DNA of 64,000 nucleotides from an uncultured archaeon (GTDB taxonomy: Archaea; Asgardarchaeota; Lokiarchaeia; Sigyniarchaeales; SOKP01): contig CAZBPC010000001.1 of assembly GCA_964493715.1 (NCBI GenBank), positions 87,032 to 151,031 of the forward strand, written 5' to 3'. A program made the position numbers and the translations under genes. The notes below the pieces were generated by a model that saw only the letters and a program-made list of their open reading frames with translations, did no database searches and had not been told where the DNA came from. This document shows positions 14,232 through 58,103 of this stretch, in pieces; within the stretch, counting starts at the first letter, position 1; every line of letters starts with the position of its first letter.

Positions 14232-14287
14232 GAATTGACGTAAGCAGAACAATTTACTATTAATACATTTGTTTGGGATTCAGGCTA

Positions 14288-14358: not shown

Positions 14359-14402
14359 AAAAATTGAAGTCTAATGTTAATAAATGAGAAATTCTAAATA
14401 AA

Positions 14403-30262: not shown

Positions 30263-31495
30263 TTAGGCAACTTTCAACCCAACCATAGAAAAAAGTTCTT
30301 TCCCTTGGTCTAAGAGTTCAATTCGTTCGATTTCACCATCATAATAGTTAAATACCACGCTATCATCATAGTATTGTTCATTCTCATCAAGTTGCCAGCA
30401 AGGTACGTACCCTCGTGCCCTGAAACCAAAATCATAGAGAATCTGTTGGTTTTGTGGCTCGTGTGCGGATGTAAAAATTTCACAATAACGAATGTCTTGC
30501 TCAACCATGCATTTCTTAAATTCTTCAATAAACACTTGAAACTCTTCTAATGAATCCATATGATATTTTACTTTTTCATAATTTTTCACTGAAGGCGTGT
30601 GTAGAAATGAGAAGTAAGATTTACTTCCTTGAAGAGTTAAACAGAAATGTTCATAACCATGTTTATCTTTTGATACTTTTCTTTTTACTTTCGATCTTAA
30701 TTCAGTGATTTTTTGTTGGTCTAATTCCAAGTGAGGAGATACCAATTGAAAAAATCCCAATTGGTACAAGTTGTCAGCAAACAAGAATGGTTCCAATGCA
30801 TTTTCAATTAAAGCAGGTACCTTTTTTGTACGATAGTTATTTAGAGTTTGTTCATTAAATATTAAACCCATTACATCACTTTCCACTGATCCATAGAAGA
30901 TATCCTTGTTAGGAAAAATCGCGACTGTATCAATCCCACATAGAGCTGTCATGTGCTGGAGTGCTGCATGGGCTGTTCTGTTTTCGCAATGCCACATTAC
31001 CACCTCATCCTTGAACGTTGACCACATCCAGTAGTAAGAGCCCATGATGACTTTTATGACATCTACCACACCATGAAATTGCTTGCGTAGCATAAATCCA
31101 CCCATATAGCCTTTTTTTTCTTTGGGGTCGATAACACAGCGAAAACAACCTGCAGAATATTCTCCAACTTTAAACAAGATGAAATGATGATTAGGGTCTT
31201 TAATAAGCTTTTTAATCACCTTTTCATCTTCCATTTCGCGGTATGGATACGAATTTTCGTAAACCTTTTTACATATATCTGCTAAATCCTTCGCGTCCTC
31301 TGTGCGTGCAAGTTTTAACACTGGACTAATCTTGGTACTTGCTTCTCGTCCTTCTATCAAAAAATCGAGTTCCATTCCGTTCTCGATATCCAAATCAAGA
31401 ATTCCTTCGAACGCTTCAAGGAAAGCTTCTATTGATTTTGGGTACAAGTATTCGCGCGGGATGATAGGACAGGTTAGTATTTCTTGGGTAATCAT
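30263..31495 (-). CDS. Hypothetical protein (possible GNAT-like domain)
   Basis: A 410-aa ORF with coding-like composition. DAKDLADICKKVYENSYPY...FILFKVGEYSAGCFRCVIDPKEKKGYMGGFMLRKQFHG is reminiscent of an acetyltransferase core. Weak. Confidence 0.3.
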   Translation of the reverse strand: MITQEILTCPIIPREYLYPKSIEAFLEAFEGILDLDIENGMELDFLIEGREASTKISPVLKLARTEDAKDLADICKKVYENSYPYREMEDEKVIKKLIKDPNHHFILFKVGEYSAGCFRCVIDPKEKKGYMGGFMLRKQFHGVVDVIKVIMGSYYWMWSTFKDEVVMWHCENRTAHAALQHMTALCGIDTVAIFPNKDIFYGSVESDVMGLIFNEQTLNNYRTKKVPALIENALEPFLFADNLYQLGFFQLVSPHLELDQQKITELRSKVKRKVSKDKHGYEHFCLTLQGSKSYFSFLHTPSVKNYEKVKYHMDSLEEFQVFIEEFKKCMVEQDIRYCEIFTSAHEPQNQQILYDFGFRARGYVPCWQLDENEQYYDDSVVFNYYDGEIERIELLDQGKELFSMVGLKVA

Positions 31496-31638
31496 GAGTC
31501 TTTATTTAATGTTATTAGACAATAATAACCATCCAATAAAACCTATCTATATAAAGGAAAAATGACAAAATTGGCAATGATGTCATAAATTGTGATTTGT
31601 TTTTTTTTATATAGATACGAATTGAATTATCAATTAGA

Positions 31639-32484
31639 ATGTTAGAATTAGAATCAAAATCGAAATGGTCTCAAGATTATTTGCATCAAGTTAGTCGTAA
31701 CATAGGACACGTCACTCTGGAAGAACAAGAAACTCTTCGAAAAACTCCTATTGGCATATTTGGAGTGGGGGGATTAGGAGGATTACTTTCTGAACAACTA
31801 GTTCGTACGGGTTGTGAACACTTAGTCATTTGTGACAGAGATAAATTCGAACCATCCAACTTGAACCGCCAAATTTGTAAAAATAAGCACATGGGGCACC
31901 AAAAAATCGATGTGGTTGCTGAACACTTGGAAAATATCAATTCCGACGTTCAGGTAGACAAATTCAATGCTGTTAATCTTCACACCATAGATAGCTTGCT
32001 TAAAGACGTGAAAATTGTGGCCTTGACATTGGACGATCCTATAGGTTCAATATTAATTGCCCGCGAATGCAGAAAAAGGAATATTCCGATGGTAGAAACG
32101 TGGGGAATTCCCTACATCTGGTCTTTTTGGTTTACTCAACAAAGTATTGATTATGAAACTTGCTATGATCTTGATACTCATGACATGACCATCGAAGAAC
32201 TATTCGTATCAGGGATGACTAGTTTCGGAGATTTATTTCCAAAACTAACCCAATTTCCTCGTATCGGCGAAATGTATGACCGATATCCTGGGATGTGGGA
32301 AAAAATGAAACGAGGAGAAGTTCCTTACCGCTCGTTTGCGCCCTTTATTGGAATAGCTGCGTCTTACTTATGTGCAGAAATAATTTTTGCAGGTATTCTT
32401 GGAGTGAAATCAATGAATTTGGCACCTAAAGTTGTCGGGTTCGATTACATGAGAATGATTCCATTTCAATTTGAAATGGAATAA
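31639..32484 (+). CDS. ThiF/MoeB/HesA-family E1-like adenylyltransferase
   Basis: IGIFGVGGLGGLLSEQLVRTGCEHLVICDRDKFEPSNLNRQ is the nucleotide-binding GxGxxG plus DxD...NLNRQ signature. No CxxC zinc motifs are visible. Confidence 0.85.
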   Translation: MLELESKSKWSQDYLHQVSRNIGHVTLEEQETLRKTPIGIFGVGGLGGLLSEQLVRTGCEHLVICDRDKFEPSNLNRQICKNKHMGHQKIDVVAEHLENINSDVQVDKFNAVNLHTIDSLLKDVKIVALTLDDPIGSILIARECRKRNIPMVETWGIPYIWSFWFTQQSIDYETCYDLDTHDMTIEELFVSGMTSFGDLFPKLTQFPRIGEMYDRYPGMWEKMKRGEVPYRSFAPFIGIAASYLCAEIIFAGILGVKSMNLAPKVVGFDYMRMIPFQFEME

Positions 32485-32514
32485 TCTTTTTTTTCTTTCT
32501 AAAATTTCTTGAAA

Positions 32515-33378
32515 TTAAGGAAACAGTTTTATAAGGAGGTTGCTTAATTGATGTTGTTCCCAACTATTCTTCGATGCCTTTTTTGCCATGTAATTAGTAA
32601 GTAATACTCTTGCTCCTTTGTATGCAATCTTTCTATCTCTATCATTAGATACTAGTGTATTCACTTTTTCTTTCACATGGAATTCCATTAGGAACTGAAG
32701 CACTCTAAAAAAAACATCGTACATAAGAAGTCTGTCATCCTCATAGATCTCTTTTCCATTGTGAACAGCATCGTTTCTTGCCTTGTTTAATAGGATCAAA
32801 TCCTTCTCTAATTCGATGGGAAATTTTAATTCTTTTATCTTGTCTGGCATTGGTAGTGTATCATCTTTTTCAAATACTCTCTCGTGATATAGCTCGATAT
32901 TACCGATTAACCGGATCAAGAATCGAAACTCGTCTTCAACTCCTTTTTTTTCTAAGTTAAGGTAATCAAACATTTTTAACCAAGAATCAATATTAATTAC
33001 TTGTAATTCCTTTTTAACTATTTTTTCTATAGAATAGACAATATTATTATCCTCAATATTACTTATTCCATTTTTTTCAATTACTATGGTTCCTTGCACT
33101 AACCCTTGGATTCTTCTGGCAATCAACTCGAGTAATTCTTCTCGTTCCTCAAATTTTTGTTCTAATTCTGATGCATGTAAATCCATTGTTTCACTTTTTG
33201 AATTATTATTTTCTTGTAGGTTCTTGATAAAGAAAGGAAACAATTCGATAATCTCATCTAATATTATAGCACGCTGGTTTAATATAAGTTGCTTCATCTC
33301 TTTTGGGCTGATTTCATTTCGAGAAAATTGGATGATTTTTGTTTTGAGTAAATCAAGCTTATCGTGATCAAATATCAC
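32515..33378 (-). CDS. Hypothetical protein with C-terminal HEPN-like RNxxxH motif (last gene of four-gene operon)
   Basis: LILLNKARNDAVHNGKEIYEDDRLLMYDVFFRVLQFL: R201-N-D-A-V-H206 (nt 32761-32778) in a helical context, as in HEPN/DUF4145-type domains. The N-terminal half is coiled-coil-like. Confidence 0.35.
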   Translation of the reverse strand: MIFDHDKLDLLKTKIIQFSRNEISPKEMKQLILNQRAIILDEIIELFPFFIKNLQENNNSKSETMDLHASELEQKFEEREELLELIARRIQGLVQGTIVIEKNGISNIEDNNIVYSIEKIVKKELQVINIDSWLKMFDYLNLEKKGVEDEFRFLIRLIGNIELYHERVFEKDDTLPMPDKIKELKFPIELEKDLILLNKARNDAVHNGKEIYEDDRLLMYDVFFRVLQFLMEFHVKEKVNTLVSNDRDRKIAYKGARVLLTNYMAKKASKNSWEQHQLSNLLIKLFP

Positions 33379-33425
33379 TTTTTCTGCTAGTCCCTTAAGA
33401 ATATCTATTGAATTTATGTTCGTTG

Positions 33426-36400
33426 TTATGCGTTCTCTCCTCCTTGTTGGATGCTGGTATACTCTTCTAATACCTGAGAGATCTTTTGGTGAGATTTCAA
33501 TAATTCATGACATGCTTCTTTCTGGGTTTCAACAGAAATCGTAAGTGTTGATGGATAAGCAAGATAATTAAATACGTCCTCTTCAGATAAAGGAAACCCA
33601 TCCATTGTAACTAAACTTTTCAAGAAACTCTCTCTTGATTCAAAAACTCCGATTTCGGGGAGTTGTTCTATTCGAGCTTGAATGTTGGAAACATACATCT
33701 CGGATAGATCTTGAGCGATGATTAATGCATGTTCGAGATTTCCCTTGTTTAAATCCCTCTCTATTTGGAACAAGTTCCATTGCAAGATATCAATCAATTC
33801 GGAACGAATAATAGCTTTTACACTTTTTACGGGTAGTTTTTTTATCATTGATCCTTGAGTTGGGAGGAACTTAAAATCGGGAATGGATTCAGATTGCTGG
33901 TCCATTATTTCAAAATCGATGTTGGCAATTGTTTTCCTTCGTGTTTCATAATAATCTTCTAAGACTCTATCAAACTTTGGTGAGACTTGGTATGAAGAAC
34001 GAACGGATTGACCACCACTGGCTTGAGCAGGGTGACTCTCTACCAAGTAACCCCTATTGAAAAGGATATCTAAAATCTCATCCCTCATCTTATTCACTAT
34101 TTTCCTATCTTGATTTATCAATGATAATTTGGAGTATAAAATATTCTTAAGTTCTTCTCGAATCTTGCTCTTATATAAATTACCTACCGTATGTACGGTT
34201 TTCAAACTTTCCAAGAAGGTAATGATTTCAGGGATCAGATGAGAATATTCCCCCATATCCTTTTCAAACACCGTTTTTTGTGCCCGTTCCAAGATCACTC
34301 TTTCAGCATTTTTCATATTAAATCCTTGGGCATCCATGTGAGTGATAATTTCCTTCCAATCGAGTGAGTCTAATTTCGCTAATTGACTCGAGTCAATTTT
34401 CACCGGAAATGGTTGATAAATATCAGTACGTTTCATTATCGCTTCAGGAGGACTCATGGTCATTAAATAACGTGTTTGATACAACTCATTACGAGATTTA
34501 CTATACATGCCCGTTCCATGCATTTCTTCAAGGTTTAACAAGTTTCTAAGAGTGGATATGTCACGAGGATCGATCGCTTTAAATGCAATGTAATTATCAA
34601 GGATGGTGAGCACGTGTGGATGGAGATGATGTACTTGATCGGCAGAACAGATGAAGCCAAATCCTTTTTGCAATAATGGAGTCATGAACTTGGATATTTT
34701 CCCATATTTCATCGGTTTTTCAAGAAAGTAGACATCAAATATGAGATCCAGATGGGGAATAACTAAAAATTTGGGGATATACTGATCATTAAAGTTTAGA
34801 TAATGAATAAATTTTGCCACCATCAACCATGTAAAAAAGACCTGTTTATTTAAATCCGATGATCCTGAGATATCTATGATTATGGTTTTATCCGTTTTTA
34901 AATACTCTAAAACTGATGAAACAAAATTACTCTCTTCATATTTACTAAACAAGTATGTAGTATCTTCTGCTGAGAATTCTTCAAGAGTAGCAATGATTGA
35001 TTCGACGCCGTTTCTTTTTTCGTGGTCTGGTAAATTTTTTACATGAGTTACAAGCGTGGAATAATCAACACTAGAGTCATCGTCTTTTTTAATTGAGGAG
35101 AGCTTCGAAAGTGAATTTTTAAACAATGTAACCGTTCCCTCATCTTTCTTAAAGCTCATTTCATATACATCTAACATCAAGTTCAAAAACTCGAGATTGT
35201 GGGCATCGTATGAGATCTCAGAATGGATGGGATCGATCGTAATGGTTCTCCCTAATTTATAGTAAAGAATCGAATTTTCATGTTCCGTTCCCTTAAAAAG
35301 CCTGATCATTTTTGACCAATTGCCTGAATAATCAAAAACAATGGAATTTTGATTTTGCTTGATGAGTTCAGCAACTATAAGCATTGAAACTGTTTCCCTA
35401 TTTTGAAATGTTCCATTCGTGATTAAAGAACGTTTAGCTTGAGCTTCTGTGAATCCAGCGTCAATTTCTCTACCTAAAAACTCAGTATTGATAGTAGTTC
35501 CGATATTTATATAACTTTCTAATTGTAATGGAGTATTAAATTCCGCAGCAATTTTAGTTTCAATTCCTTTCTTGAATTCATTAGCAATGGTGATGAAAGA
35601 AGTTAATGTGGTACCTTGTGTGATCATGTAAGGTAAGTAAGAACCTTTTAACTGAGTAAACCTGGTTTTGAGTGAACTCACGGTAAGGGCAGATTCCAAG
35701 TGATTTTTTTTGAGTGGTTTTATATTAAAAGTAGAATAATACGAATGGAATGAAGTTTTAAGGATTATCGCATTCTCCCGAAGCTGAGATTCAAGGTCTT
35801 GAAAATCAGCAGTAGAGACGTTTTTCACACGTTTATACACGTGAGTAGTATAAATTCCTACTGTTTTCCATATGCCGGCTCTTTGTATCATCCACTTGTC
35901 TTCTTCTCGCTTATCTCTTATCTTATTCATGTGATATTGTTTTTCTGATCGACTCAAGTATTTTTTTCCTAATTTATAGAATCGATAGTAAGAAATTGCG
36001 CCGGTAATTACCGTGGTTCCAAAGGATATTCCTTGAGACATGAGTGAGCCATAGAATTTGCTATCATATGCATATACAGGTAATTTAACTTCATCCACGC
36101 TAAATGCTTTCAAACCTCCCAATAAATTATCTCCTATCTGGAAAAAAATCGTCTCAGGCGCTCGTGAAAAGCGATAGAAACGAATATCACTAAAAGGATT
36201 TATGGGAATGATCTCAGGAGAATTAAAATTCTTTTTTGAAAAAAGCTGAAACAAGGGTTCTTTCCACCAGCCCATGAGAATCAATCCTATCACTATACTA
36301 GATGATAAAATTGTCAGAATCCCATTTTTCCAAACCGCAGAAACCAATCCACCAACAACTATTGCAGTGATTAAGGTCATTATTGTTTTGGAAATAATTT

Positions 36401-37211
36401 TCATCGTTATTTTGATGTTATTCTTTATAGGATTACTTGGAGGAATATCTTGTTTGAGAAATATGGTTCTCAAGGCTTGTACGGCTTCATTTTTCTGCAA
36501 TAGAGTTATCTTGTAATGATGAAAGTTAGGGACAAAATCCGAATTGATAGTCAATGTTTTTGAGTGCAATGTTTCTAAGAATCGATTGAATCTATTTTTG
36601 GAAAAAATACCCTTAATCTCGTGAGATACTGCAAAATAGATAATAGTCCGAAATGGTGTCATTCTTGCCCCGTTTATCTCTTTTTTCAATGATGATATTT
36701 GCGTGGATGGGGTTAAGATGGGCTGTTGTATTACCTGGTAGGTAATGCTTTGAAAACGAGTTGAAAGCACTCTGATAAATTGCGTGATATTAGCATTAAC
36801 ATTTTCAGGCAACACCTCTACCCGAAAAATTCGTATTCCCACTGTGAGCAAATCTTCTCGATTAGTAAAAAAGATGGAATTTTGATCCTTGTTCAATTGC
36901 CAGAATGATAAAGATTTAAAAGGATTAAACGGTTGAGTAAAAAAACTTCGAGTTGAAAATATTAAAATGAAGACTATCATGAAAAACACGCAAAGAGGAA
37001 CGATTTTGAACAAGTCTGATGATAATAGATAACCATGTATTGCAATGACAGTGGTTAGTCCTAATAATACCCCTCGTTTAATCCGTACTGTATTTTGAGT
37101 AACATCTTTTTTAACGGGGCTTAAGGGCCAGATGTTAAGATACTTCTTGCTTTCATTTTCGTCTTCTATTTGGATTATTTTTGGTTTTAAATATTCAGCG
37201 TAATTTACCAT
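33426..37211 (-). CDS. Large (1261 aa) four-TM protein with HerA/VirB4-like P-loop domain carrying degenerate Walker motifs (hypothetical)
   Basis: Two TM hairpins (aa about 47-87 and 272-316). aa about 565-900 follow the HerA/VirB4 motif order, but Walker A is LITNGTFQNRET (not GxxGxGKS/T) and Walker B is KFLVIPHLDLIF (not hhhhDEAH). Also IVFDYSGNW and GFGFICSADQV. Confidence 0.4.
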   Translation of the reverse strand: MVNYAEYLKPKIIQIEDENESKKYLNIWPLSPVKKDVTQNTVRIKRGVLLGLTTVIAIHGYLLSSDLFKIVPLCVFFMIVFILIFSTRSFFTQPFNPFKSLSFWQLNKDQNSIFFTNREDLLTVGIRIFRVEVLPENVNANITQFIRVLSTRFQSITYQVIQQPILTPSTQISSLKKEINGARMTPFRTIIYFAVSHEIKGIFSKNRFNRFLETLHSKTLTINSDFVPNFHHYKITLLQKNEAVQALRTIFLKQDIPPSNPIKNNIKITMKIISKTIMTLITAIVVGGLVSAVWKNGILTILSSSIVIGLILMGWWKEPLFQLFSKKNFNSPEIIPINPFSDIRFYRFSRAPETIFFQIGDNLLGGLKAFSVDEVKLPVYAYDSKFYGSLMSQGISFGTTVITGAISYYRFYKLGKKYLSRSEKQYHMNKIRDKREEDKWMIQRAGIWKTVGIYTTHVYKRVKNVSTADFQDLESQLRENAIILKTSFHSYYSTFNIKPLKKNHLESALTVSSLKTRFTQLKGSYLPYMITQGTTLTSFITIANEFKKGIETKIAAEFNTPLQLESYINIGTTINTEFLGREIDAGFTEAQAKRSLITNGTFQNRETVSMLIVAELIKQNQNSIVFDYSGNWSKMIRLFKGTEHENSILYYKLGRTITIDPIHSEISYDAHNLEFLNLMLDVYEMSFKKDEGTVTLFKNSLSKLSSIKKDDDSSVDYSTLVTHVKNLPDHEKRNGVESIIATLEEFSAEDTTYLFSKYEESNFVSSVLEYLKTDKTIIIDISGSSDLNKQVFFTWLMVAKFIHYLNFNDQYIPKFLVIPHLDLIFDVYFLEKPMKYGKISKFMTPLLQKGFGFICSADQVHHLHPHVLTILDNYIAFKAIDPRDISTLRNLLNLEEMHGTGMYSKSRNELYQTRYLMTMSPPEAIMKRTDIYQPFPVKIDSSQLAKLDSLDWKEIITHMDAQGFNMKNAERVILERAQKTVFEKDMGEYSHLIPEIITFLESLKTVHTVGNLYKSKIREELKNILYSKLSLINQDRKIVNKMRDEILDILFNRGYLVESHPAQASGGQSVRSSYQVSPKFDRVLEDYYETRRKTIANIDFEIMDQQSESIPDFKFLPTQGSMIKKLPVKSVKAIIRSELIDILQWNLFQIERDLNKGNLEHALIIAQDLSEMYVSNIQARIEQLPEIGVFESRESFLKSLVTMDGFPLSEEDVFNYLAYPSTLTISVETQKEACHELLKSHQKISQVLEEYTSIQQGGENA

Positions 37212-38066
37212 TTACCAATACCTCCATTTTTTCATGGCATTATAATATAGATATCCAAGTAACAGAATGCTAACTAAGAAGAAAATCATGAGCATTCCAA
37301 CCGCTTCCAGCGAGTTCGGCATGATGATTGTTTCTGCAATCAATAAAGATTCGAAAATTCCCAATAAGATGATGAATCCCAATATAACCAACCATCCGAT
37401 TCCTTTTTTAGAAGCTACGTAATTCGGATTATCTTTCAATCTTCCTTGAACAGGTATCTTGCGATTATCATTGCGATTAAGGGCGGACCTTATCTTCTTT
37501 AGCTGTAATGAAGTTTCTAATACGTCCCCATTCATTCCGTTCTGTAAATGAGAATGGAGTTCTCTTTCTCTTTTTTCAATCTCATCAATGAGGAGATCTC
37601 TCACCATTGAAGAAGAATCATTTGGAGTTTTTCTTGAAAATAAGTTAAAAGACCTAGTATTCGAATAATCTTGTCTTCTTAGCGTTCGGGTAAAGTTATT
37701 AAATTCTGGTATCCTTATCTTGCGAATATCATAATAAAGCGCGATAGCATCTTTTAAATGGTTTTTTGGTAGATTTCCATCTGATTTGAAAAAGAGCGTT
37801 TCAATGATTTTAACCCTATTGATCATATCAGCAGGGATTAGATTGATTCCTAAATGGACGATATAGCGATTTATTCGTTCCAAGAAATAATGGATAAACT
37901 CATCCTTTCTTGGATCTCTCCTACCAATTTCTAATTTAATACCTATCATATCCACATGATTACTAATAAGTTGCAAAGTGGTAGCTGAAAGTTTAGCGTG
38001 ATTACCACTCATTATACATCTTTCCACCAAAGTTTCAAATTTATTATCCATTAAATTCATCATCAT
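37212..38066 (-). CDS. Hypothetical protein, helical cytoplasmic domain plus two C-terminal TM helices
   Basis: Its ATG overlaps the upstream stop by 4 nt, and its TAA abuts the next ATG. C-terminus GIGWLVILGFIILLGIF...VGMLMIFFLVSILLLGYLYY. Confidence 0.5.
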   Translation of the reverse strand: MMMNLMDNKFETLVERCIMSGNHAKLSATTLQLISNHVDMIGIKLEIGRRDPRKDEFIHYFLERINRYIVHLGINLIPADMINRVKIIETLFFKSDGNLPKNHLKDAIALYYDIRKIRIPEFNNFTRTLRRQDYSNTRSFNLFSRKTPNDSSSMVRDLLIDEIEKRERELHSHLQNGMNGDVLETSLQLKKIRSALNRNDNRKIPVQGRLKDNPNYVASKKGIGWLVILGFIILLGIFESLLIAETIIMPNSLEAVGMLMIFFLVSILLLGYLYYNAMKKWRYW

Positions 38067-38863
38067 TGTTTTTTTAACCTCTTGCTATTCTTTCTTTGAG
38101 ATTGAAATTGCTGGTATGCAATTTCGATTTTTTGGTCAACTCTACCTTCTCCTTTTAAAGGTGGCGTCTTGTGGGAACGCGTGATTAATTTTTTTTGTGA
38201 GATTAAAAAGGCATCTTCTTCCGCAATGAGTTGGTCCAAGTTAACAGATTCTTTAACTGCTTGCATTTGAATCCTCTTCTTGGGAATTCTTGAGTGTTGT
38301 TCAAAGGTGGTGGCTACTTTATAACAAAAAAATGCGTATGGAAAAGTCAAGATAAACCCCATACATTGAAAATAGTAGCCAATTCCGATTCCTTGATATA
38401 CATAAATGGAAAAATCACCGTTTTCAACAACCATTCCTGGAAAAAATAACCCATTAGAGAAGAGGATCATAAAAGGAAATATAATTATCATAAGAATTGT
38501 CATAAAGGTAGTTGAGAGGAAGAAATAAGAATTGGATCTAGTTGTTTCCAAGTTAGACACAGTTTCTGGGTTTCTAAATAAAGCGATTACTATCGAACCA
38601 ACTAATAAAAAAACTTGGATAAAACTCATCATTGGTGATATCATGTAATTTTGAGGAATGTATTGATTTAACAAGCTGCTTTCAAGATGTTTGATAGTAG
38701 CCCAACCATTTAAGATTTCATAAGTGCTTTCCATGAGCTTTTGCCCGATATCATTCCGAACTTCCACGGAAAACCATTCTAAAAACAATGAAACGAACGT
38801 GAACAAGAGTCCAATGATAAAAAACAGCTTGAGCAAGTCAGCCGATTTTTCATAAAGTTTCAT
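38063..38863 (-). CDS. Hypothetical polytopic membrane protein (first gene of operon)
   Basis: About 5 hydrophobic segments and a basic C-terminal tail (QSQRKNSKRLKKQ). Confidence 0.5.
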   Translation of the reverse strand: MKLYEKSADLLKLFFIIGLLFTFVSLFLEWFSVEVRNDIGQKLMESTYEILNGWATIKHLESSLLNQYIPQNYMISPMMSFIQVFLLVGSIVIALFRNPETVSNLETTRSNSYFFLSTTFMTILMIIIFPFMILFSNGLFFPGMVVENGDFSIYVYQGIGIGYYFQCMGFILTFPYAFFCYKVATTFEQHSRIPKKRIQMQAVKESVNLDQLIAEEDAFLISQKKLITRSHKTPPLKGEGRVDQKIEIAYQQFQSQRKNSKRLKKQ

Positions 38864-39026
38864 GCAAGAAGATACTTTTAGAGCTATTTAAAAAAAAAAT
38901 CTCTTAGTGAATATATATTCGAGTTAATATCCTAGTTTTTTCTTTTTAAATTAACAACTATAGATTTAAATATATAGCTGTAATGTATTGATCTTGAAAG
39001 ACGTAAATGCAAAAATTATTAACTAT

Positions 39027-39179
39027 GATACGACCATCTGCCACCCTGGATTTTTGTCTTTTGGTAGTGCAATTACTGCACTTTAATTTCGCCCTCCAAG
39101 AGTCGTGATATACACGGAACTGGGGAATCCCCCTTTAATTCTTCAGCGAAAATACTTTTCGCAGGCAGATGGAAGTATC
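39027..39179. ncRNA. Candidate structured non-coding RNA (unclassified), about 153 nt
   Basis: A GC-enriched island in an AT-rich spacer. Terminal helix GATAC..CCATCTGCC (39027-39042) pairs with GGCAGATGG..GTATC (39164-39179). Internal hairpins GTGCAattacTGCAC, GGGGaatCCCC and GCGAAAAtacTTTTCGC. Confidence 0.4.
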
Positions 39180-39293
39180 ACCTTTCATTCAAAAAATATT
39201 AAAAATAATAATTTTTGCACTTTTCTCCTAAAAGTACTGTCAAAATTATGCTTGAGTATATCATTCTAAAATAATTAACTAATGGTAAGTATT

Positions 39294-41474
39294 TTAGTCA
39301 TCCAAAAACGACTGGTATTTAGAAAGAATGGCATTATTTTGATTCAAATCTTGCTCTCTTTCAAATTCAGTTTCTATGGACAAGGGTTTAGTTTCGAATG
39401 GTTCATGATTCCCTTGGTCATTTATCATGGTTACCTTCTCTTTTTTAGGTTCATAAATTGATTTCTTACTTAAGAAAGCCGTGAAACTGTTTTTCTTTAA
39501 TTTAACAGGTTTTTCTACCCTCCTATAAGTTACTTCGTACTCAATTTGAGTCATCCATTCCTCAGAAAATTCCTCGCTTATGAGGATGAGGTCTTCCTTA
39601 GGAAGAACAAAGCGTTTCTCGTAATGGGGAGTCTTAAATTGAATTGTCATGTTGTTAGTTGCTTGAAAATAGCGATAGAAGACAAGTGCAATGGCCCCCA
39701 AATATATAAAAATCAACGCAAATCCTAATGATGTAAACAAGCGCACTAAATCTCCCATTTGCATTGCCAAGAAAAGTGAAAACAAAGCTCCAAATCCTAA
39801 AAAGGGTAGGGAATAATTCTTCGCGTTTCTATAGAACGAATTTTTCATCTTAAGTTGTTTAATGAGCGCGTTTGAAGAGGAGCCTTGAGTTGTTAACAAA
39901 GTGTACTTATGCTCCAAATATTCTATTAACTCTTGTAGTTCCTCCAGTTCGATAAAATGCATATTAGAAGAATATTGATAGGGAAATGGGATGGTTTTCT
40001 CAATGGATGAAACAGATTGATTGGTTATGAGTATCGGATCAATGATGATCTTGTATTCAACGTCTCCTGATGTTATAAAAAGTGGTTTTTGCTTAATACC
40101 TCTCTGAACAAGGATCTCCAATCCAAGGTAATTTGATAATAAAGTGAAAAGAGTCCCTTCATTTGTAAAGCTTTCAAACATTGCATCAGAAACCTTCTTG
40201 AGCTGTCTTAAGTGAGCTTCTGGAATGGAATCTGGAACATATCTTAATGAGGAAGCTTCATTTGTGCTAAGATGCTTCAGGATTCTTTTTTCAGATACCA
40301 TTAGGCAATTTCGAGAGAGGAAGTATTTTATAGGCATGAGTATTATTAAACGGGTGTTATTAGACACCGTAATGACCTTGCATCCCAAAAAGTCAATTCC
40401 CCGTCGAAATTCCCTCATATCTTGTCTATTTAAAGGTATCTCGTGAAATTGTCGATCTTTTGCTATGCTTGAAATTTTTTGATAAAATTGATTCCTCTCA
40501 AATTTAGGTGCTGTTTCTTGTGATGAATTGCGATTTATTTTTGGTATTGATGCTCGAAAGGGTTCGGGTAATTTGATCAATGTATCTTCCATTTCAGGTT
40601 TACTTACAAGAGGTTCCATTTGCAACTTGTTCATATCAGCACCCTTCTTATCAAAATTTACTCTTACACTAGAGCGAAAAACTTGATTTCGAAAGGGTTT
40701 TACCTCATCTTCTTCAATAAAGCAAGGTTTCTCTACTTCAAATTCTTCTTCAATTACTTTCTCTTCATTAATTTTAGGAGGTTGTTCTTCTGATTCAACA
40801 TCTGATGTTAAGGAATCATCCATCTTTTCTTCATTAAGCGAATTTGAAATCATTTCGCTCTCATTTCGTTCTTGATCTTTACTGGCATTAAACCATTCAT
40901 TGAGGTTATTAATAATTACTTTACTTTTATGAGATCGTAACGTTAACCTTTCTTGAGGAAGGAGTCTTTTTGGTTCTGATGTGGAAAGGTCTTGGATATT
41001 GGGGATTGTTTCATATCCATTAGTGCATTCCTTTGCATTCGTTATTATCTTATTTGCGGTAGCGACCCCGATTCCGGGTATGCAAGCTATTTGATCAGAT
41101 GTGGCCCTTGCTATCTCTTGAATGGTATTAAACCCGTTTGATTTCAATTTCAAGGCAAAATTCGGCCCGATCCCTTTCACACTCGTGAGATCTTCACATT
41201 TTTCTTGATTTACTTGAAAATTAATTTTGGATACTTGAAGCTGATTATCATGTAAATTCCTGGACTGAGCAAGTTGGTCCAAAACTTCCTTAAATCTTGC
41301 AGTCCATTCTGCATTTTCTTGAATTTGAGCTTCATTTAATGCATTCTCAGCAAATTTCATCGCTTGCGCGATATGATTTTCATTGACTAACTCTTGCAGA
41401 TTTTCAAATAAAAATGCGAGATCCCATTTTTTATCTACTTGAAGTGTTCCATTCACGCTAACCATAATTTTCAA
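39294..41474 (-). CDS. Hypothetical membrane protein with N-terminal tandem HhH DNA-binding module
   Basis: LTSVKGIGPNFALKLKSNGFNTIQEIARATSDQIACIPGIGVATANKIITNAKE, an acidic linker, a globular middle domain, then two TM helices (LPFLGFGALFSLFLAM..., FALIFIYLGAIALVFY). Confidence 0.5.
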   Translation of the reverse strand: MKIMVSVNGTLQVDKKWDLAFLFENLQELVNENHIAQAMKFAENALNEAQIQENAEWTARFKEVLDQLAQSRNLHDNQLQVSKINFQVNQEKCEDLTSVKGIGPNFALKLKSNGFNTIQEIARATSDQIACIPGIGVATANKIITNAKECTNGYETIPNIQDLSTSEPKRLLPQERLTLRSHKSKVIINNLNEWFNASKDQERNESEMISNSLNEEKMDDSLTSDVESEEQPPKINEEKVIEEEFEVEKPCFIEEDEVKPFRNQVFRSSVRVNFDKKGADMNKLQMEPLVSKPEMEDTLIKLPEPFRASIPKINRNSSQETAPKFERNQFYQKISSIAKDRQFHEIPLNRQDMREFRRGIDFLGCKVITVSNNTRLIILMPIKYFLSRNCLMVSEKRILKHLSTNEASSLRYVPDSIPEAHLRQLKKVSDAMFESFTNEGTLFTLLSNYLGLEILVQRGIKQKPLFITSGDVEYKIIIDPILITNQSVSSIEKTIPFPYQYSSNMHFIELEELQELIEYLEHKYTLLTTQGSSSNALIKQLKMKNSFYRNAKNYSLPFLGFGALFSLFLAMQMGDLVRLFTSLGFALIFIYLGAIALVFYRYFQATNNMTIQFKTPHYEKRFVLPKEDLILISEEFSEEWMTQIEYEVTYRRVEKPVKLKKNSFTAFLSKKSIYEPKKEKVTMINDQGNHEPFETKPLSIETEFEREQDLNQNNAILSKYQSFLDD

Positions 41475-41589
41475 GGATAATTAGTCACAGTCTTATTTAA
41501 AAAAAAAATTGAAAAAGAAAAAAGAGGGGAAGAAACCTCCATACTTTCAACTGCTTCTCTCTTTTTATCTAACAATTTTTCTTTATAAA

Positions 41590-44127
41590 ATGAGGAGGAT
41601 ATTAACTTCTAACGTGTCACTAAAAAAATATGTCAACCTCCAAGAACCTTTATTAGACGAACCACCAGAAATACTTAATTTCATAAAAGATGAGCGACTT
41701 CAACGGGTCCTTTTAGAACACCAAATTTTTACATTACGATCCATTCAGAAAGAAGCAATCGCGAAAGGATTATTTTTTCGAAAATCTTTCTTGGTTTGCG
41801 CTCCGAGCGGGAGTGGGAAGACTCTTATAGGCGAGTTATGTGCGGTTCACGCCATTTTCAATAATTTTGGTAAATCAATATATCTAGTACCTTTTAAGGC
41901 TTTAGCATCCGAAAAATATCTCTCATTCAAGCACGATTATGAGCGTTTCGGTATTCGCGTGGAACTGTCCATAGGAGACCAAGAACCTGAAGAAAAAGCT
42001 TTGGAAGATGCTGACCTAATCATTACCACCTATGAAAAAATGGATTCTATCCTCCGGAATTTTCACGACAAGCAATGGATTTCAGACATAACAACTATAG
42101 TGATTGATGAGATACATGTTATTGACGAGTCGGATAGGGGTCCTCGCTTGGAATCACTTATCGTCAGACTCAACGAATTCTTGCATCAACCTCAAATCAT
42201 AGGACTTTCTGCCACCATTGCAAACCCTGAGTTTTTCAATCAATGGCTTTCTTCACTTGGCAACAAGATGATTTTAATCAAGTCGGACGTTCGACCAGTG
42301 CCGCTTCATTATCAGATTGAAATTTCCCGCAATAAGGATTCTACACTAAAAAAAATCGTAAATGATACCTTATCTCAAAATGGTCAAGTATTGGTGTTTG
42401 TCAACAAAAGAAAGTTAACTCAAAACATTGCCCTCAATCTAAGAATGCTGGTAAAAGGTCATCTAAGTCCTGAAGAACTGAATGAATGCAAAAAAGCGGA
42501 AAGTAGCCTTTCATCGCTTCGAGGAGGCATTCTTGACTTGAGAAAGTCAATTAAGCACGGTGTTGCATTCCATCATGCGGGCTTGCTTCACAAGGAGCGT
42601 AAAGTGGTAGAAGAAGCATTTCGAAAACACTTCCTTAAATTAATAATTTGTACTACAACCTTGTCGGCGGGTATTAACCTTCCCGCTAGGGTTGTAGTTT
42701 TAAGAGATTTCAAGAAATATACCACTTCAGGGCATAACGTCAAGAATTTCGAAGATCTCCACGAAAATGGAGATGGCTTTTCCTATTTCAAGCCATTTTC
42801 GGCCAATGAGGTATTTCAAATGTTGGGAAGAGCTGGTCGACCAGGTTTGGATTCAATAGGACATGGGATCATCCTTGGATGTGATGTAAATGAGAGAGAA
42901 TGGATTGAAGATCACTATTTTTCTGTAGATCCAACCGAAGAAATTGTCCCTAAATATAATAATTTAGGTTCCGGGTTAAATACCATCCATACTCTCAAGG
43001 AGCAAGTTCTACTAAGAATTTACGAAGAAGAAAACATCTCGATGGAACAGTTAAAGAATTTCTTTAAGAAAACGTTCTTTTGGTTTTGTATTCAAGATAA
43101 AATGGGAGATGATGCCATCCCAATAGAGCAGTTATTAATGATCGAAGAAATATCTCCAAAAAACATTTTGAGATTACATTCCCAACCCGAAAAAATAAAA
43201 ACCATCAGGAAGCGATCTTATCCCATAAAAATATCAAGATTCACCAAAGAGGGCATTGGGGGATATGTGAAAACCGATTACGGGGTTCATAACGTCCAAT
43301 TTGATCTTGATAGAGGAATTGAATGTTCTTGTGGATTTGAGAACGGAATGTCAGATGGATATGCAACCACCAAGTTCTCATTTGAGTTTTGCGACCACGT
43401 ACTTGCCTTTTTACTCTATATCTTTGAAATTCCCGACTCTAACTTTCAGAAACACGTGGAAGATGTTATACCCCAGTGTTTAAAGACCCAATACATATTG
43501 AATTACCTTTTTGAGAAGGGATTAATAATCAAAAATGAGAATGGTACCATAAAGTGCTCGCAATTTGGAAAATTAATTATACGTTTATACTTGTATCCCG
43601 TGTCAGGTGTATTAATTCGATCCAAGTTAGAAAATTTCGAGATATCTTCCTATCAAGATATGATAAAGAGCGCCTTTGATATTCTTCGCGCTGAAGCACG
43701 CGTTAGAGATTACCACTTGTTACAACCGCTACTCGAATGGACAGATGAGGAGCCCGTAGACAGCATCATCCAGAAGCACAATATCATGGCAGGTGACCTG
43801 TACAGCTTGAGAGATAATTTAGAGAGAATTATCACTTTCATGGGAATCATTGCCATTCACTTGGCAGATACGGGAAGTGACCTTCAAGATAATTTAATTA
43901 GAGTAGCAGAAATGGCAGAAACATTAAAGATTAGAATCCATTATGGCGTGAGGGAAGAACTATTTGATCTTGTCATGCGTTTGGATAATGTTGCTCGAGT
44001 GAGAGGGCGTATTTTATTCGATGCTGGATACCATACTTCAAATCAAGTGAAAAAGGAGATACCCTCTGTTCTTCACAGAAAAACGGGAATAAGTCTAATA
44101 ATATGTAAAAAATTATCAAGACTATAA
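41590..44127 (+). CDS. Ski2/Hel308-family DEAD/DEAH-box helicase with inserted SWIM-type zinc finger
   Basis: Motifs APSGSGKT, VIDEIH, SATIANP, TTTLSAGINLPAR and MLGRAGRPG, with WH and ratchet-like regions. CSCGF...(n)...FCDHV gives the CxCxnCxH pattern. The listed ORF starts at TTG 41509; ATG 41590 (MRRILTS) is more plausible. Confidence 0.85.
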   Translation: MRRILTSNVSLKKYVNLQEPLLDEPPEILNFIKDERLQRVLLEHQIFTLRSIQKEAIAKGLFFRKSFLVCAPSGSGKTLIGELCAVHAIFNNFGKSIYLVPFKALASEKYLSFKHDYERFGIRVELSIGDQEPEEKALEDADLIITTYEKMDSILRNFHDKQWISDITTIVIDEIHVIDESDRGPRLESLIVRLNEFLHQPQIIGLSATIANPEFFNQWLSSLGNKMILIKSDVRPVPLHYQIEISRNKDSTLKKIVNDTLSQNGQVLVFVNKRKLTQNIALNLRMLVKGHLSPEELNECKKAESSLSSLRGGILDLRKSIKHGVAFHHAGLLHKERKVVEEAFRKHFLKLIICTTTLSAGINLPARVVVLRDFKKYTTSGHNVKNFEDLHENGDGFSYFKPFSANEVFQMLGRAGRPGLDSIGHGIILGCDVNEREWIEDHYFSVDPTEEIVPKYNNLGSGLNTIHTLKEQVLLRIYEEENISMEQLKNFFKKTFFWFCIQDKMGDDAIPIEQLLMIEEISPKNILRLHSQPEKIKTIRKRSYPIKISRFTKEGIGGYVKTDYGVHNVQFDLDRGIECSCGFENGMSDGYATTKFSFEFCDHVLAFLLYIFEIPDSNFQKHVEDVIPQCLKTQYILNYLFEKGLIIKNENGTIKCSQFGKLIIRLYLYPVSGVLIRSKLENFEISSYQDMIKSAFDILRAEARVRDYHLLQPLLEWTDEEPVDSIIQKHNIMAGDLYSLRDNLERIITFMGIIAIHLADTGSDLQDNLIRVAEMAETLKIRIHYGVREELFDLVMRLDNVARVRGRILFDAGYHTSNQVKKEIPSVLHRKTGISLIICKKLSRL

Positions 44128-44136
44128 GGTGAGAAA

Positions 44137-44424
44137 GTGTCTTACGAAGCCGATGATGATCCCTTGTTTGCTCCTAGAAAAAAACAAATAAAAATACGGG
44201 AATTTTTAGTCATAGAGAAAGAAGAAAAAGGAAATACTAATTATATCATAAAATCATTTGGATCTTCTAAGGAAGAGGCATTGGATGCACTTTCATTTCT
44301 CAAGAACGCAATTAATTCATTTAACAAGTTATCCCCTTTACAAAAAATCGAATTTTGTAAAAGCCAACGAACATTAATTAAATTATATCTAAAACTATTA
44401 AACCAAAAAAATAATCATTTATAA
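44137..44424 (+). CDS. Hypothetical small protein, likely co-transcribed with the helicase
   Basis: GTG start 9 nt after the helicase stop, preceded by GGTGAG. No recognisable motif. Confidence 0.4.
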   Translation: MSYEADDDPLFAPRKKQIKIREFLVIEKEEKGNTNYIIKSFGSSKEEALDALSFLKNAINSFNKLSPLQKIEFCKSQRTLIKLYLKLLNQKNNHL

Positions 44425-44462
44425 TTATTTAACGGATGCCTTACATGGAATAATAGAATATT

Positions 44463-44723
44463 TTATTTTTTTTTTTTGAAAAAAGTTTGAATGAAAATAT
44501 AATCACGACAGGCACTTTCAAACTCGATTCGTAATAAAGCCTTGAAAAGAGGATCCCGCTTGGATAGAGGCAAAGATCTTGAATCATCGTTACCCTTCCT
44601 AGATCTGTGGAGGAATTCAGAATGGGGGATAATGATTTTGGATAGATCCTTTTCCAGCGGGAGATCCTCTGCGTGCTCCGTATCCGATAAAATTTTTCGA
44701 AATTTTTTTCCGTGAGAACTCAT
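44463..44723 (-). CDS. Hypothetical small basic protein
   Basis: An 86-aa ORF downstream of and co-directional with the Hef-like operon. No motif. Confidence 0.3.
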   Translation of the reverse strand: MSSHGKKFRKILSDTEHAEDLPLEKDLSKIIIPHSEFLHRSRKGNDDSRSLPLSKRDPLFKALLRIEFESACRDYIFIQTFFKKKK

Positions 44724-44781
44724 GAATATAAATCCTAATAGATCTATATAAATAACAAAAAAACAAAAAAAGAATTTTCAA

Positions 44782-45306
44782 TTAAGTACTTTTTAAAATA
44801 TAATCTTCATTTCGGTTCATGAGATGTCCCTCTTTCAAAGCTCGCCTCATTAGGTTGGCAAATTCTGATTGAGGAATGTGTTTATTTTCTGCCATAATTT
44901 CAATGATATATTTTGGAAAAGTTTTATACATCTCAGAGAGTTCTCTTAACATTAAGATAAACGAATTAAACATTTGCTCATCTTTATCTTCATTTTTTGA
45001 TGGTAATATAGAAACATCACTCACATTACTCGAAGCAATCTTAAATCCTCCTTCTGAAACAAAATCAGGCTCTCCTTTCAGTTCTTGTCGACTAAATTCA
45101 TGTTGTAAACGTTTTGTTCTATTTACCGCATTTGTCATTCCATTAACTAGCTCTGATTTATTTAAGAGGCTCTCGACTTTATGAGAATGCCCACAACGTA
45201 AACATTTTTTTGTCTTTTGCGTTGTTTTTACATAACTAAACTGGTGACATTTATGGCATGCAAATATCAGGTATGGGGTCTCATCTCGCTTCCATTCTTC
45301 TTCCAT
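44782..45306 (-). CDS. Zinc-ribbon protein (DUF1922-like) with C-terminal helical domain
   Basis: YLIFACHKCHQFSYVKTTQKTKKCLRCGHSHKV has the CxxC...CxxC ribbon. It starts 5 nt downstream of the Hef-like gene stop. Confidence 0.5.
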   Translation of the reverse strand: MEEEWKRDETPYLIFACHKCHQFSYVKTTQKTKKCLRCGHSHKVESLLNKSELVNGMTNAVNRTKRLQHEFSRQELKGEPDFVSEGGFKIASSNVSDVSILPSKNEDKDEQMFNSFILMLRELSEMYKTFPKYIIEIMAENKHIPQSEFANLMRRALKEGHLMNRNEDYILKST

Positions 45307-45311
45307 TCATT

Positions 45312-47501
45312 TCACCTCGTTTTTTTATGAGGTGTATACAAATTTTTAATAATAAATACTAATTCTTCGGGAACATCAATTGATATGGTTCGAAACCAGT
45401 TTTGATCCCCCCATTCGGAAATCCTCTGCTTGAGCAATCGCTTTTCCCCCTCAAACTGTTCGGTGAAATCCTCGAAGTCAAATACGAATAAGACGAGTTT
45501 CCTTGCTTGTCGAAGCCGTATCAAATCCTTCTCTGATATGGACACGCTTTCTTTAATAAACGTGCGAGGATCGATAATAAATAAAGAAATTTCAGAAAAA
45601 AGATCAATTCTCCTTCCAGTTTCCTGCAAACCAAGGATGATACCTTCTTTTTGTAATTTTTTACGTAAACCAAATTTCCCCGGCACATCCTTGCTAATCA
45701 ATATTTCTGGATCTGGAATTCTCAATGAGGTGCTGGATATAGGATGCTCAGGTTTCGAAGAAGAAAAATAAGATACCAAGGTTTCTTGGTTTGGAGATCG
45801 AGGTTTTGATGGTGGCAAATATTTAATTTTACTAGTCACCTTTTCAATTTTTTGTTTGAATTTTACTTCTTTCGTATCTCCCATATCATTTTCCTGATAA
45901 TTAATTGGTCCTTTTTTATTAGTTTCCTCTGTAGACACCTTAAGATTATCATTCATTTTTTGTATTTTATTGAGTGCAATTCTTAAGTAAATTTCATCAT
46001 TAGTCTCCTTGGTATACAACAAGATGACCTTACCTTCTTTTTGACGAGCAGTTCGTCCCTTTCTTTGGATATACCTGATTTCTGATGCCACAATATCATA
46101 AAATACCACTATATCGCATTCAGCGATATCCAATCCTTCCTCCGCTACATTTGTAGCTACGAGAACATTAAATATGCCTTCCTTGAAGGACTTCAGAATC
46201 TCCAGTTGTCTTTTTTGACTCATTCCCTTATCTTTTTTTGACTTGGTCGCTTGCCCCACGAATCGAGTGGGCTTGATCATGGATTCTTTTTCCAAACGTG
46301 AAGTGATATTTTGGATAGAATCCCTCAATTTTACGAATACCAAGATTCTTGAATCGGGATTTTCATGTAATTGATCGATTAGTATCTTTTTTAAAACAAT
46401 ATATTTAGGATGGATCAAACCTTCTGGATATTCGGATTCATGATTTTTTAGTTCAAGATAAATTCGACGTATTCGGTTATCTCCTGCTAGATTCTGATTT
46501 GCCTTGCTACTGTTCTGCTTTCGGGCCTCTTTCATTAATTTTTCTAAATACGTGAGTAGGATATCGAGTCCTTGTTGTTCGATGAGTTCTAACATGTGAT
46601 ATAGAATGAGTCCTTGGGCATTAACTGAAATAACACCATAGACACTCTTATCCCCAGAGGACATCTGCTTGATTAATTCTGTATTGAGCCTTAACAGGTC
46701 TTTTCTTGTTATCTTTTTTACCAACGTTTCTCCTTTTTTTTCGATATGCCCCATTTGGGAGAGATATTGAAGTCGTTCTTCCACCAAGCGATTGATAACG
46801 ATCAGAGCATCTTCCATTAATTCTGTCATATCCACTCCGATTTTAAATATATTCATTGGTTGTAAGTAGTTTTTCACATCTTCATCCTTTCGGGTTCTCA
46901 CGTGGACATTGTTTTTATCAATATGTAATAATTGACATAGTTCATTAATGCGTTCCTTGGAAGATCCCGGTGAAGCGGTAAGTGCTAATATGGTACCGTC
47001 GGGGTTTTGGTCTTGAAAGGTGTCTGCAATGAGTCCATAGGGATAATCGCCACTTGCGTGGTGTGCTTCATCAAAGATGATAAGGCAAGTGTTTTTGAGG
47101 TCATAATGTTTTGCAACTAAATCATTTCTTAGAGTTTGAGGGGTATAAAATAAGATCTGATGTGCTTCAAATAATTTAGGTCTTTCTTCTGATGGATTTT
47201 TCCCAGTAAGCGTAATCATAGAATCATCGGGAATTGCGAGGAATTGAGCAAATGATTCATGATGCTGATTAATTAAAGGACGTGTAGGTGCTAGAACAAT
47301 AATTTTTGAATTTCTGGGATAGGATTGGAGTGTTTCTGCTACTACCAATAGTGATATGATGGTTTTTCCCAGACCAGTAGGGATGACCACTAATGAGTTT
47401 CTATTTACACACTTTTTCGCAATTTCTACTTGGTATTCTCGAAATTGGATTTTATTTGTTTCAAGGAATCTAAAGGGACTCATTTCGGTCGCACGGGCCA
47501 T
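45312..47501 (-). CDS. Hef/FANCM/Mph1-type SF2 helicase with apparently inactive ERCC4-like C-terminal domain
   Basis: VIPTGLGKT, VLAPTRPLINQH, IIFDEAHHASG, LTASPGS, VATNVAEEGLDI and QRKGRTARQ. Start reassigned to ATG 47499-47501 (MARATEMS), preceded by AAGGAGGA and 4 nt after the upstream stop. The C-terminal about 130 aa has the ERCC4 layout without GDx/ERK residues. Confidence 0.85.
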   Translation of the reverse strand: MARATEMSPFRFLETNKIQFREYQVEIAKKCVNRNSLVVIPTGLGKTIISLLVVAETLQSYPRNSKIIVLAPTRPLINQHHESFAQFLAIPDDSMITLTGKNPSEERPKLFEAHQILFYTPQTLRNDLVAKHYDLKNTCLIIFDEAHHASGDYPYGLIADTFQDQNPDGTILALTASPGSSKERINELCQLLHIDKNNVHVRTRKDEDVKNYLQPMNIFKIGVDMTELMEDALIVINRLVEERLQYLSQMGHIEKKGETLVKKITRKDLLRLNTELIKQMSSGDKSVYGVISVNAQGLILYHMLELIEQQGLDILLTYLEKLMKEARKQNSSKANQNLAGDNRIRRIYLELKNHESEYPEGLIHPKYIVLKKILIDQLHENPDSRILVFVKLRDSIQNITSRLEKESMIKPTRFVGQATKSKKDKGMSQKRQLEILKSFKEGIFNVLVATNVAEEGLDIAECDIVVFYDIVASEIRYIQRKGRTARQKEGKVILLYTKETNDEIYLRIALNKIQKMNDNLKVSTEETNKKGPINYQENDMGDTKEVKFKQKIEKVTSKIKYLPPSKPRSPNQETLVSYFSSSKPEHPISSTSLRIPDPEILISKDVPGKFGLRKKLQKEGIILGLQETGRRIDLFSEISLFIIDPRTFIKESVSISEKDLIRLRQARKLVLFVFDFEDFTEQFEGEKRLLKQRISEWGDQNWFRTISIDVPEELVFIIKNLYTPHKKTR

Positions 47502-47505
47502 TTTA

Positions 47506-58012: not shown

Positions 58013-58103
58013 GTATTAATAGCATATTAGTTTCTTTGTAGTTATGAAAATTTGCCTGATTTTTTTCTCACCAACTAATAATACTGCTCAAATAGCAGAT
58101 GTA
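58013..58103 (+). repeat. Direct repeat copy A (upstream region plus first 20 codons of the flavodoxin/ferredoxin gene)
   Basis: 80 of 91 nt are identical to 59593..59683. The coding part (58044-58103) matches at 57 of 60. Confidence 0.85.

Follow-up and report, generated by a model that had tools for sequence, protein, structure and literature searches.

Sm-class snRNAs such as U7 and the spliceosomal U1, U2, U4 and U5 are small RNAs in which a single-stranded R-A-U(4-6)-G segment lies between helices, with a hairpin directly after it. An element of similar layout is present at positions 39027-39179 of the 64,000-nucleotide stretch of archaeal DNA analyzed here, referred to as the window. 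Its motif was compared with that of Sm-class snRNAs at the level of the site sequence. Sm sites read AAUUUUUGGAG in spliceosomal snRNAs and AAUUUGUCUAG in U7, and the motif of the element, GAUUUUUGUCU, joins the spliceosomal AAUUUUUG with the U7-type UUUGUCU (PMC7491329). The setting is comparable as well, since Archaea possess a homologous Sm-like ring, and archaeal LSm heptamers retain its uridine-binding pockets (PMC4152361). In contrast to Sm-class snRNAs, the element features a U rather than a purine after the G, is built around a closing stem and a three-way junction, and exhibits no detectable homology to snRNA models, none of which (U1, U2, U4, U5 or U7) appeared among its Rfam matches even at E <= 10.

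Hgc RNAs are reportedly GC-rich, stable RNAs of AT-rich archaeal genomes, found by screens of GC content. The element shares with them a stand-alone position as a GC island in an AT-rich spacer, together with a TATA promoter and an oligo-U end, both of which are predicted in its case. However, it is not homologous to Hgc RNAs, whose Rfam families are unmatched, and its host belongs to a mesophilic Asgard lineage. In Y RNAs, bacterial Y-like RNAs and Hfq-type sRNAs, the two ends pair in a closing stem, large unpaired regions are rich in pyrimidines, and the 3' end carries a short U-rich tail. These features recur in the element, for which a protein-bound role is likewise proposed by analogy with Y RNAs and Hfq-type sRNAs. 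Unlike Y RNAs, the element has neither a Ro-binding bulged helix nor an adjacent Ro/Rsr gene, and the Rfam Y RNA and Yrl models are unmatched; Hfq-type sRNAs, for their part, are bacterial. Three-way-junction riboswitch aptamers also combine a closing P1 and two hairpins with highly conserved joining strands, but the element differs from them in having no consistent downstream gene, with the next gene of the window being convergent, and in matching no Rfam family.

The element belongs to a previously undescribed RNA family whose known members all come from Promethearchaeota (Lokiarchaeia-like Asgard archaea). Rfam 15 (4227 models) was searched, a match being counted when the covariance-model score reached the gathering threshold of the family. 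At this threshold no family matched 39027-39179, and the only match in the whole window was a tRNA at 14288-14358. Permissive searches (E <= 10) of the spacer and two homologues returned unrelated matches far below gathering, none with E < 1 and none common to the homologues. ARAGORN, used for tRNA and tmRNA, likewise reported a single gene, tRNA-Gly (CCC) at 14287-14359 on the - strand, and nothing at 39027-39179; this tRNA is the sole Rfam or ARAGORN match in the 64 kb. A literature search by keyword, and one for the literal motif across 8 million papers, returned nothing on this RNA.

Individual known classes were also considered. A C/D-box sRNA, which would have C (RUGAUGA) and D (CUGA) boxes near its paired ends, was rejected, as the sequence lacks UGAUGA, its ends are AUGAUAC...GUAUCACC and no snoRNA model reaches gathering; an H/ACA sRNA, which would have an ACA box 3 nt from the 3' end and a pseudouridylation pocket, was rejected in the same way, with no conserved ACA and no snoRNA model at gathering. 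A conserved kink-turn-like motif in P1 is not tenable, as the GA/AA internal loop becomes Watson-Crick UU/AA in two close relatives (L008 and L010). With respect to retrons, no RT domain was found in eight neighboring proteins (Pfam) or in the precomputed Pfam calls of the locus.

Architecture and conservation of the element

The element resides in a 430-bp spacer between the stop codon of an HhH gene (39294) and the ATG of a four-gene operon (38863), both on the - strand. It had been described as a GC-richer block in an AT-rich spacer, which holds in the window with the same coordinates and sequence: the element has 44% GC (0.444) against about 21% in its flanks (0.215 in the left and 0.211 in the right spacer), the whole window having 0.333. 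The HhH gene upstream of the operon encodes a 726-aa protein with a single HhH_5 domain (Pfam), and the operon encodes, in order, proteins of 266, 284, 1261 and 287 aa. The neighboring proteins occur on metagenome contigs from salt marsh and sediment, as well as in Promethearchaeota-labelled MAGs (Lokiarchaeia-like Asgard archaea). A block spanning window positions 30263-47585 is syntenic in more than 50 related Promethearchaeota contigs (loci L006-L112). It comprises genes for a Hef-like helicase, DUF1922 (a Zn-ribbon protein), a Hel308-like (Hel308/Ski2-like) helicase, HhH, the 266-, 284-, 1261- and 287-aa proteins, ThiF and a 410-aa protein, in this order, with the HhH, 266-aa and 284-aa products being membrane proteins. 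The 266/284/1261/287-aa genes form a lineage-wide orphan operon.

The original prediction had proposed a self-closing structure with three hairpins, and every stem that it listed is found in place. The outermost closing stem, GATAC/GTATC (39027-31/39175-79), is continued by 9-mer arms, CCATCTGCC and GGCAGATGG (39034-42/39164-72), and in the 64-kb window the 9-mer CCATCTGCC is confined to the two closing-stem arms. The hairpins GTGCA/TGCAC (39067-71/39077-81), GGGG/CCCC (39122-25/39130-33) and GCGAAAA/TTTTCGC (39146-52/39156-62) all exist, although the second of them lies in an insertion specific to close relatives of the window. The prediction had missed a further hairpin, TCGTG/CACGG (39103-07/39113-17). 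Folding places the structure far beyond chance: the minimum free energy (MFE) of a 166-nt segment is -55.9 kcal/mol, as against -33.2 +/- 4.0 kcal/mol in 200 dinucleotide shuffles (z = -5.67 on the + strand, or about -5.7; none of the 200 shuffles as good). The reverse strand folds alike (z = -5.65, dinucleotide shuffles).

Read on the + strand, the element begins with the 5' strand of the closing stem P1, U-GAUAC-[GA]-CCAUCUGCC (39026-39042), which pairs with the covarying 3' strand, GGCAGAUGG-[AA]-GUAUC-A (39164-39180). It is followed by a single-stranded joiner, CCCUG-GAUUUUUGUCUUUUGG (39044-39064), which contains the Sm-site-like R-A-U5-G-U and is nearly invariant in 11 sequences from 8 lineages. 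The P3 hairpin, A-GUGCA-AUUAC-UGCAC-U (39066-39082), has 98% of its alignment cells paired. The pyrimidine-rich joiner J3/5 (39083-39102) has a conserved start in the alignments, UYURAUUUCGCCCUCY; its sequence GAUUUCGCCCUCC is shared by the window group, L101a/b and L012, whereas L043, L090 and L041 carry a degenerate form. An insertion at 39103-39133 carries two hairpins, UCGUG/CACGG (39103-17) and GGGG/CCCC (39122-33); it is present only in the window, L006, L008 and L010 and is missing from six more distant homologues. The end of J3/5 (39134-39145) is a UUUYAG-type sequence, CUUUAAUUCUUCA, conserved in the alignment. It leads into the P5 hairpin, GCGAAAA-UAC-UUUUCGC (39146-39162). Beyond P1, all full-length homologues possess a 3' tail, CCUUUC in the window (39181-39186), with the family consensus C-N-Y-CCUUU.

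Homologues were sought in 107 loci (about 1.1 Mb), all fetched around homologues of the 1261-aa protein, using nhmmer and two covariance models. Eight independent lineages of Promethearchaeota carry them: the window group (window, L006, L008 and L010), L012/L013, L043, L090, L041, L095 (a copy cut by the contig end), L101a and L101b. In L006, L008 and L010 the 1261-aa protein is 83-94% identical to that of the window, and in the six distant contexts that carry the element (L012/L013, L043, L090, L041, L095 and L101, the last with two copies) it is 33-37% identical. A fuzzy motif search of all 107 loci found no more divergent members of the family, and the HhH-operon spacers of about 100 nt in L014-type lineages contain no RNA. 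The homologues share a common + strand order of P1, motif joiner, P3, pyrimidine-rich joiner, P5, P1 3' strand and the tail C-N-Y-CCUUU. The pyrimidine-rich joiner often begins with RAUUUCGCCCUCY and ends with UUUYAG, and P1, P3 and P5 constitute a three-way junction common to all.

These three helices covary across the 8 lineages. In the 11-sequence alignment, 17 of the 24 pairs have changes on both sides, and 90.6% of cells show standard pairing, compared with 31-44% when partners are slid by 1-3 columns; the covariation score was matched by none of 500 shuffles. RNAalifold recovered P1, P3 and P5, and nothing else consistent, with no structure supplied. Changes on both sides affect 10 of the 14 modelled pairs of P1, three of the five in P3 (GUGUA/UACAC, GAGUG/CACUC and GUGCA/UGCAC) and four of the five in P5. 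The P5 helix is swapped wholesale with compensation, to GACCU/AGGUC in L008 and L010, GACGC/GCGUC in L101 and GAGCC/GGCUC in L043, and this occurs even between close relatives (GCGAAAA/UUUUCGC versus GACCU/AGGUC). The two paralogous copies of L101 (259-387 and 5016-5144), separated by 4.6 kb in a single MAG, are near-identical from J3/5 to P5, the 3' two-thirds, whereas their P1 differs entirely and in a compensated manner (GACUCCUGCC versus CACCCAUCA). Because its helices are conserved with compensatory covariation across lineages, the element is a conserved functional RNA structure and not a decayed gene fragment or a DNA repeat. The earlier designation as an unclassified structured RNA candidate is thus supported, both by covariation and by the absence of Rfam, tRNA or literature matches.

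Several additional substructures were considered and set aside. An AT-rich inverted repeat (39005-30/39197-222; 26 nt, 81% complementary) flanks the element on both sides and, when single sequences are folded, extends the closing helix. It was rejected as a processing stem, being not conserved; it is probably incidental, because the closest relative, L006, has lost the 3' arm. A bulge-helix-bulge at the foot of P1 was rejected, as the unpaired bases are opposed as a symmetric 3x3 internal loop and not as staggered bulges. The single-sequence fold also contains a 4-bp GGAU/GUCU mini-hairpin, whose G-C pair is lost in L090, L041 and L095 with no compensation; together with a short P2 (ACC/GGU) around the U-run, it is not kept in L090, L041, L095 or L101b. 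A long-range helix in the minus-strand MFE, CCUGGA/UCCAAG, has no partner in L101 and L043.

Strand, promoter and relation to the neighboring operon

Promoter, conservation and folding evidence were used to assign the strand and the ends of the transcript, and they make transcription of the window + strand likely. The alignment contains 12 G-U against 4 A-C pairs on the + sense (7:4 when L041, whose P1 is misaligned, is left out), and the alifold consensus energy is -27.6 on the + and -22.1 on the - sense. The + sense folds better by 5-11 kcal/mol in L012, L043, L090 and L041, and the - sense by 1-2 kcal/mol in the window group and L101. On the + sense, the window group, L043 and L090 have an exact archaeal TATA consensus, TTTAAATA, at 39-60 nt before the model start, and L101a has a near-exact TATA, ATTAAATA, upstream on the same sense. 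No exact TTTAAATA occurs on the - sense of the element in the homologues compared. The background frequency of this octamer is 2.6e-4 per strand-position.

In the window this TATA box (38965-38972, +), the proposed promoter of the RNA gene, is invariant in the four close relatives. Their whole-spacer alignment is conserved without a break from the TATA box to CCTTT (39181-85), where conservation stops, and L006 has a deletion just beyond. Archaeal TATA boxes usually lie about 26 nt from the transcription start site (TSS). Applied to 38965-72, this spacing would place the TSS near 38995-38997, about 26 nt from the TATA center, and would give the transcript an A-rich leader of about 30 nt. This predicted leader (38994-39025, +) is conserved in the window group, and in the MFE structure of the predicted transcript its GAAAG pairs with the 3' CUUUC. 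The CCUUUC tail is a proposed oligo-U termination site or 3' end. The transcript would most likely run from about 38996 to 39186, about 190 nt with a 153-nt structured core. On this strand the RNA gene would lie antisense to its two neighbors and diverge from the operon promoter.

The operon has its own TTTAAATA box (38892-38885, -), which serves the 266-aa/284-aa/1261-aa genes, is centered 26 nt before the ATG at 38863 and is conserved in all relatives, implying from its sequence a proximal promoter and an mRNA of the leaderless type. Because of this TATA box at -26, the element, 165 nt further upstream, falls outside the operon 5' UTR. The two exact boxes, 38885-38892 (-) and 38965-38972 (+), are divergent and 73 bp apart, and L090 shows the same divergent TATA design with the HhH gene as partner.

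The original prediction had raised the possibility of a system-associated RNA of the four-gene operon, which the distribution of the element does not support. In L086, L087 and L009 the operon is kept (1261-aa protein 77-84% identical) and the RNA is absent; their spacer, of 90-130 bp, holds only the operon promoter. The arrangement also shifts between lineages, as the RNA lies between the Hel308-like helicase and HhH genes in L043, L090 and L095, 8 kb downstream of the cluster in L041, and among unrelated genes in L101. The operon is syntenic in more than 50 loci, whereas the RNA is nearby in only 8 lineages and in three different positions. Given the opposite strand, the operon's own TATA box, the close relatives lacking the RNA and its shifting positions, a system-associated RNA is unsupported, and the element is probably an independent gene rather than a part of the operon. 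A looser linkage exists, in that the RNA recurs within a few kb of the conserved cluster in distant lineages; it is inseparable from sampling bias, as all loci were fetched via, and anchored on, the 1261-aa protein.

Alternative readings of the locus

The explanation that we favor, with somewhat better than even confidence, is a stand-alone gene on the + strand for a small structured non-coding RNA, with its own TATA box, that would act in trans as an RNP through its U-rich platform. An unlikely alternative is an element transcribed on the - strand, in the sense of the HhH gene and the operon, and acting in cis. It would belong to the HhH mRNA, as a 3' UTR or a structure close to the terminator, or else be a leader or attenuator preceding the 266-aa operon (window group and L012) or the HhH gene (L043, L090 and L095). 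In every syntenic case the element does lie just upstream of the same-sense HhH or 266-aa gene. On the - sense, moreover, the closing stem is followed by GG and U5-7 in L101a, L043 and L090, with a U5 12 nt downstream in the window, a terminator-like arrangement that counts against the + strand. The slightly better - sense MFE of the window group and L101 agrees with this reading, as do unpaired regions that would then be A/G-rich, as in many structured RNAs; the U/C-rich unpaired regions of the + strand reading are less typical of structured RNAs than A-rich ones. However, the operon and the L090 HhH gene have their own TATA boxes about 26-31 nt before the ATG, which leaves the element outside the primary transcripts, and close relatives have the same operon with no element. 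Neither conserved sequence nor an exact TATA is found where a - strand promoter would lie, which is also where L006 carries its deletion, and the G-U count, the alifold energy and the four divergent homologues favor the + sense. A + strand cis-regulatory leader of the following gene (riboswitch or protein-binding 5' UTR) would suit the three-way junction with its highly conserved joining regions, and a co-oriented ORF begins about 57-70 nt after the tail in L043, L101a and L041. These downstream genes are nevertheless unrelated, encoding a Hel308-like helicase, a coiled-coil protein of 155 aa and an orphan of 235 aa. In the window group and L012 the following gene is convergent, and no Rfam riboswitch model matches; we regard a leader of this kind as very improbable.

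Comparably low is our estimate for a structured mRNA encoding a hydrophobic, type I toxin-like micropeptide of 13-27 aa, M-x-P-x-x-T-L-D-F-C-L-L-V-V, with the start codon sequestered in the closing stem. In the window group, L101a, L043, L090 and L041, P1 has an ATG or TTG at its 5' edge, and no sequence has a stop in this frame across the invariant motif. Yet the start codon is missing in L012 (AAG), L101b and L095, and the stop comes from the P3 stem itself (GUG-UAA) and is lost in the window group through a compensated change of U-A to C-G, which doubles the length of the "peptide". Within the motif there is no synonymous variation, the changes seen being non-synonymous (L to W, V to E, D to N/K), and codon variation in P1 has no third-position bias and is compensated 130 nt downstream. 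Coding by this micro-ORF was rejected on account of the missing starts, the P3-made stop lost in the window group and the lack of synonymous variation in the motif. A DNA-level or mobile element, such as a site of recombination or replication or a MITE-like insertion bounded by terminal inverted repeats, is extremely unlikely. It would account for the presence/absence polymorphism between close relatives, the two L101 copies 4.6 kb apart and the terminal inverted repeats. On the other hand, the element is single-copy in the 64-kb window with no extra copies in 1.1 Mb of related loci, no target-site duplication marks the presence/absence boundary, and the "inverted repeats" differ between copies yet remain complementary. 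The internal hairpins covary, including G-U pairs, as expected of RNA and not of transposase-binding ends. Viral contigs contain no matches to the model: 47 of them carry the 16-mer, none exceeds 19 bits, and a viral origin was rejected.

The U-rich motif and its possible protein partner

The trans-acting + strand RNA that we favor is centered on the sequence RAUUUUUGUCUUUUGG, which lies between P1 and P3, is preceded by (Y)CUG and is nearly invariant in the 11 sequences from 8 lineages. This 16-nt U-rich motif has no consistent base pairing in the alignment or by RNAalifold, and it is fixed at the nucleotide level although the neighboring proteins are only about 35% identical across lineages. 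Because the motif is fixed and unpaired while the helices vary freely, its sequence points to a specific contact with a protein; contact with a ligand or another RNA appears less likely, and a structural role is disfavored. The complements of the motif and of GCCCUCC are no commoner in the window than in shuffles. The neighboring genes provide no functional hint, as Pfam, NCBIfam and PDB searches returned no match for the operon proteins (266, 284, 1261 and 287 aa) or for the genes beside the L101 and L041 copies.

In the proposed mechanism, the P1, P3 and P5 three-way junction would hold out long pyrimidine-rich single strands, above all RAUUUUUGUCUUUUGG. This U-rich platform may be bound by a U-specific RNA-binding protein, most plausibly a heptameric Sm-like (SmAP/LSm) ring, leaving the pyrimidine-rich joiner and the tail available for other contacts. 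In such a small RNP the RNA would act in trans, serving as a scaffold, a decoy or a guide via the pyrimidine-rich joiner, and would not be a cis element of the adjacent operon. An Sm-like protein is a tentative candidate for the partner, by analogy with Sm sites, and on balance a doubtful one. In favor of it, G/A-A-U5-G is invariant and not consistently paired, and the motif has the Sm-type layout, placed between the P1 helix and the covarying P3 hairpin. Against it, the match is short, and its last position is U rather than the purine of R-A-U(4-6)-G-R.

A bolder form of the analogy, which we consider distinctly unlikely, is that the RNA might be the core of an Asgard Sm-type RNP, with R-A-U5-G-U-C-U and the hairpin serving as a SmAP/LSm assembly site and the joiner guiding the particle to purine-rich targets. 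If true, it would correspond functionally, in a prokaryote, to Sm-class snRNPs such as U7 and could conceivably be related to them by descent. An Sm-site-like uridine platform on a covarying RNA offers a testable handle on Sm-like protein-RNA biology in this lineage, and the small size of the RNA suits direct studies of binding and structure. Whatever the partner, it represents a new RNA family for annotation pipelines, which leave the locus blank or call spurious small ORFs, and the covariance model built here is usable on all Asgard genomes.

Two further observations concern the genes around the element and the rest of the window. In some MAGs the 1261-aa protein is represented by two paralogues on separate contigs (L091 and L102 in CAZALK01..., L101 and L104 in JAEOTZ01...), one copy being in the full syntenic cluster and the other in a different context. 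Elsewhere in the window, a 91-nt direct repeat (58013-58103 and 59593-59683; 88% identical, 1580 bp apart) occurs in AT-rich surroundings and may be a duplicated promoter or leader of paralogous genes.
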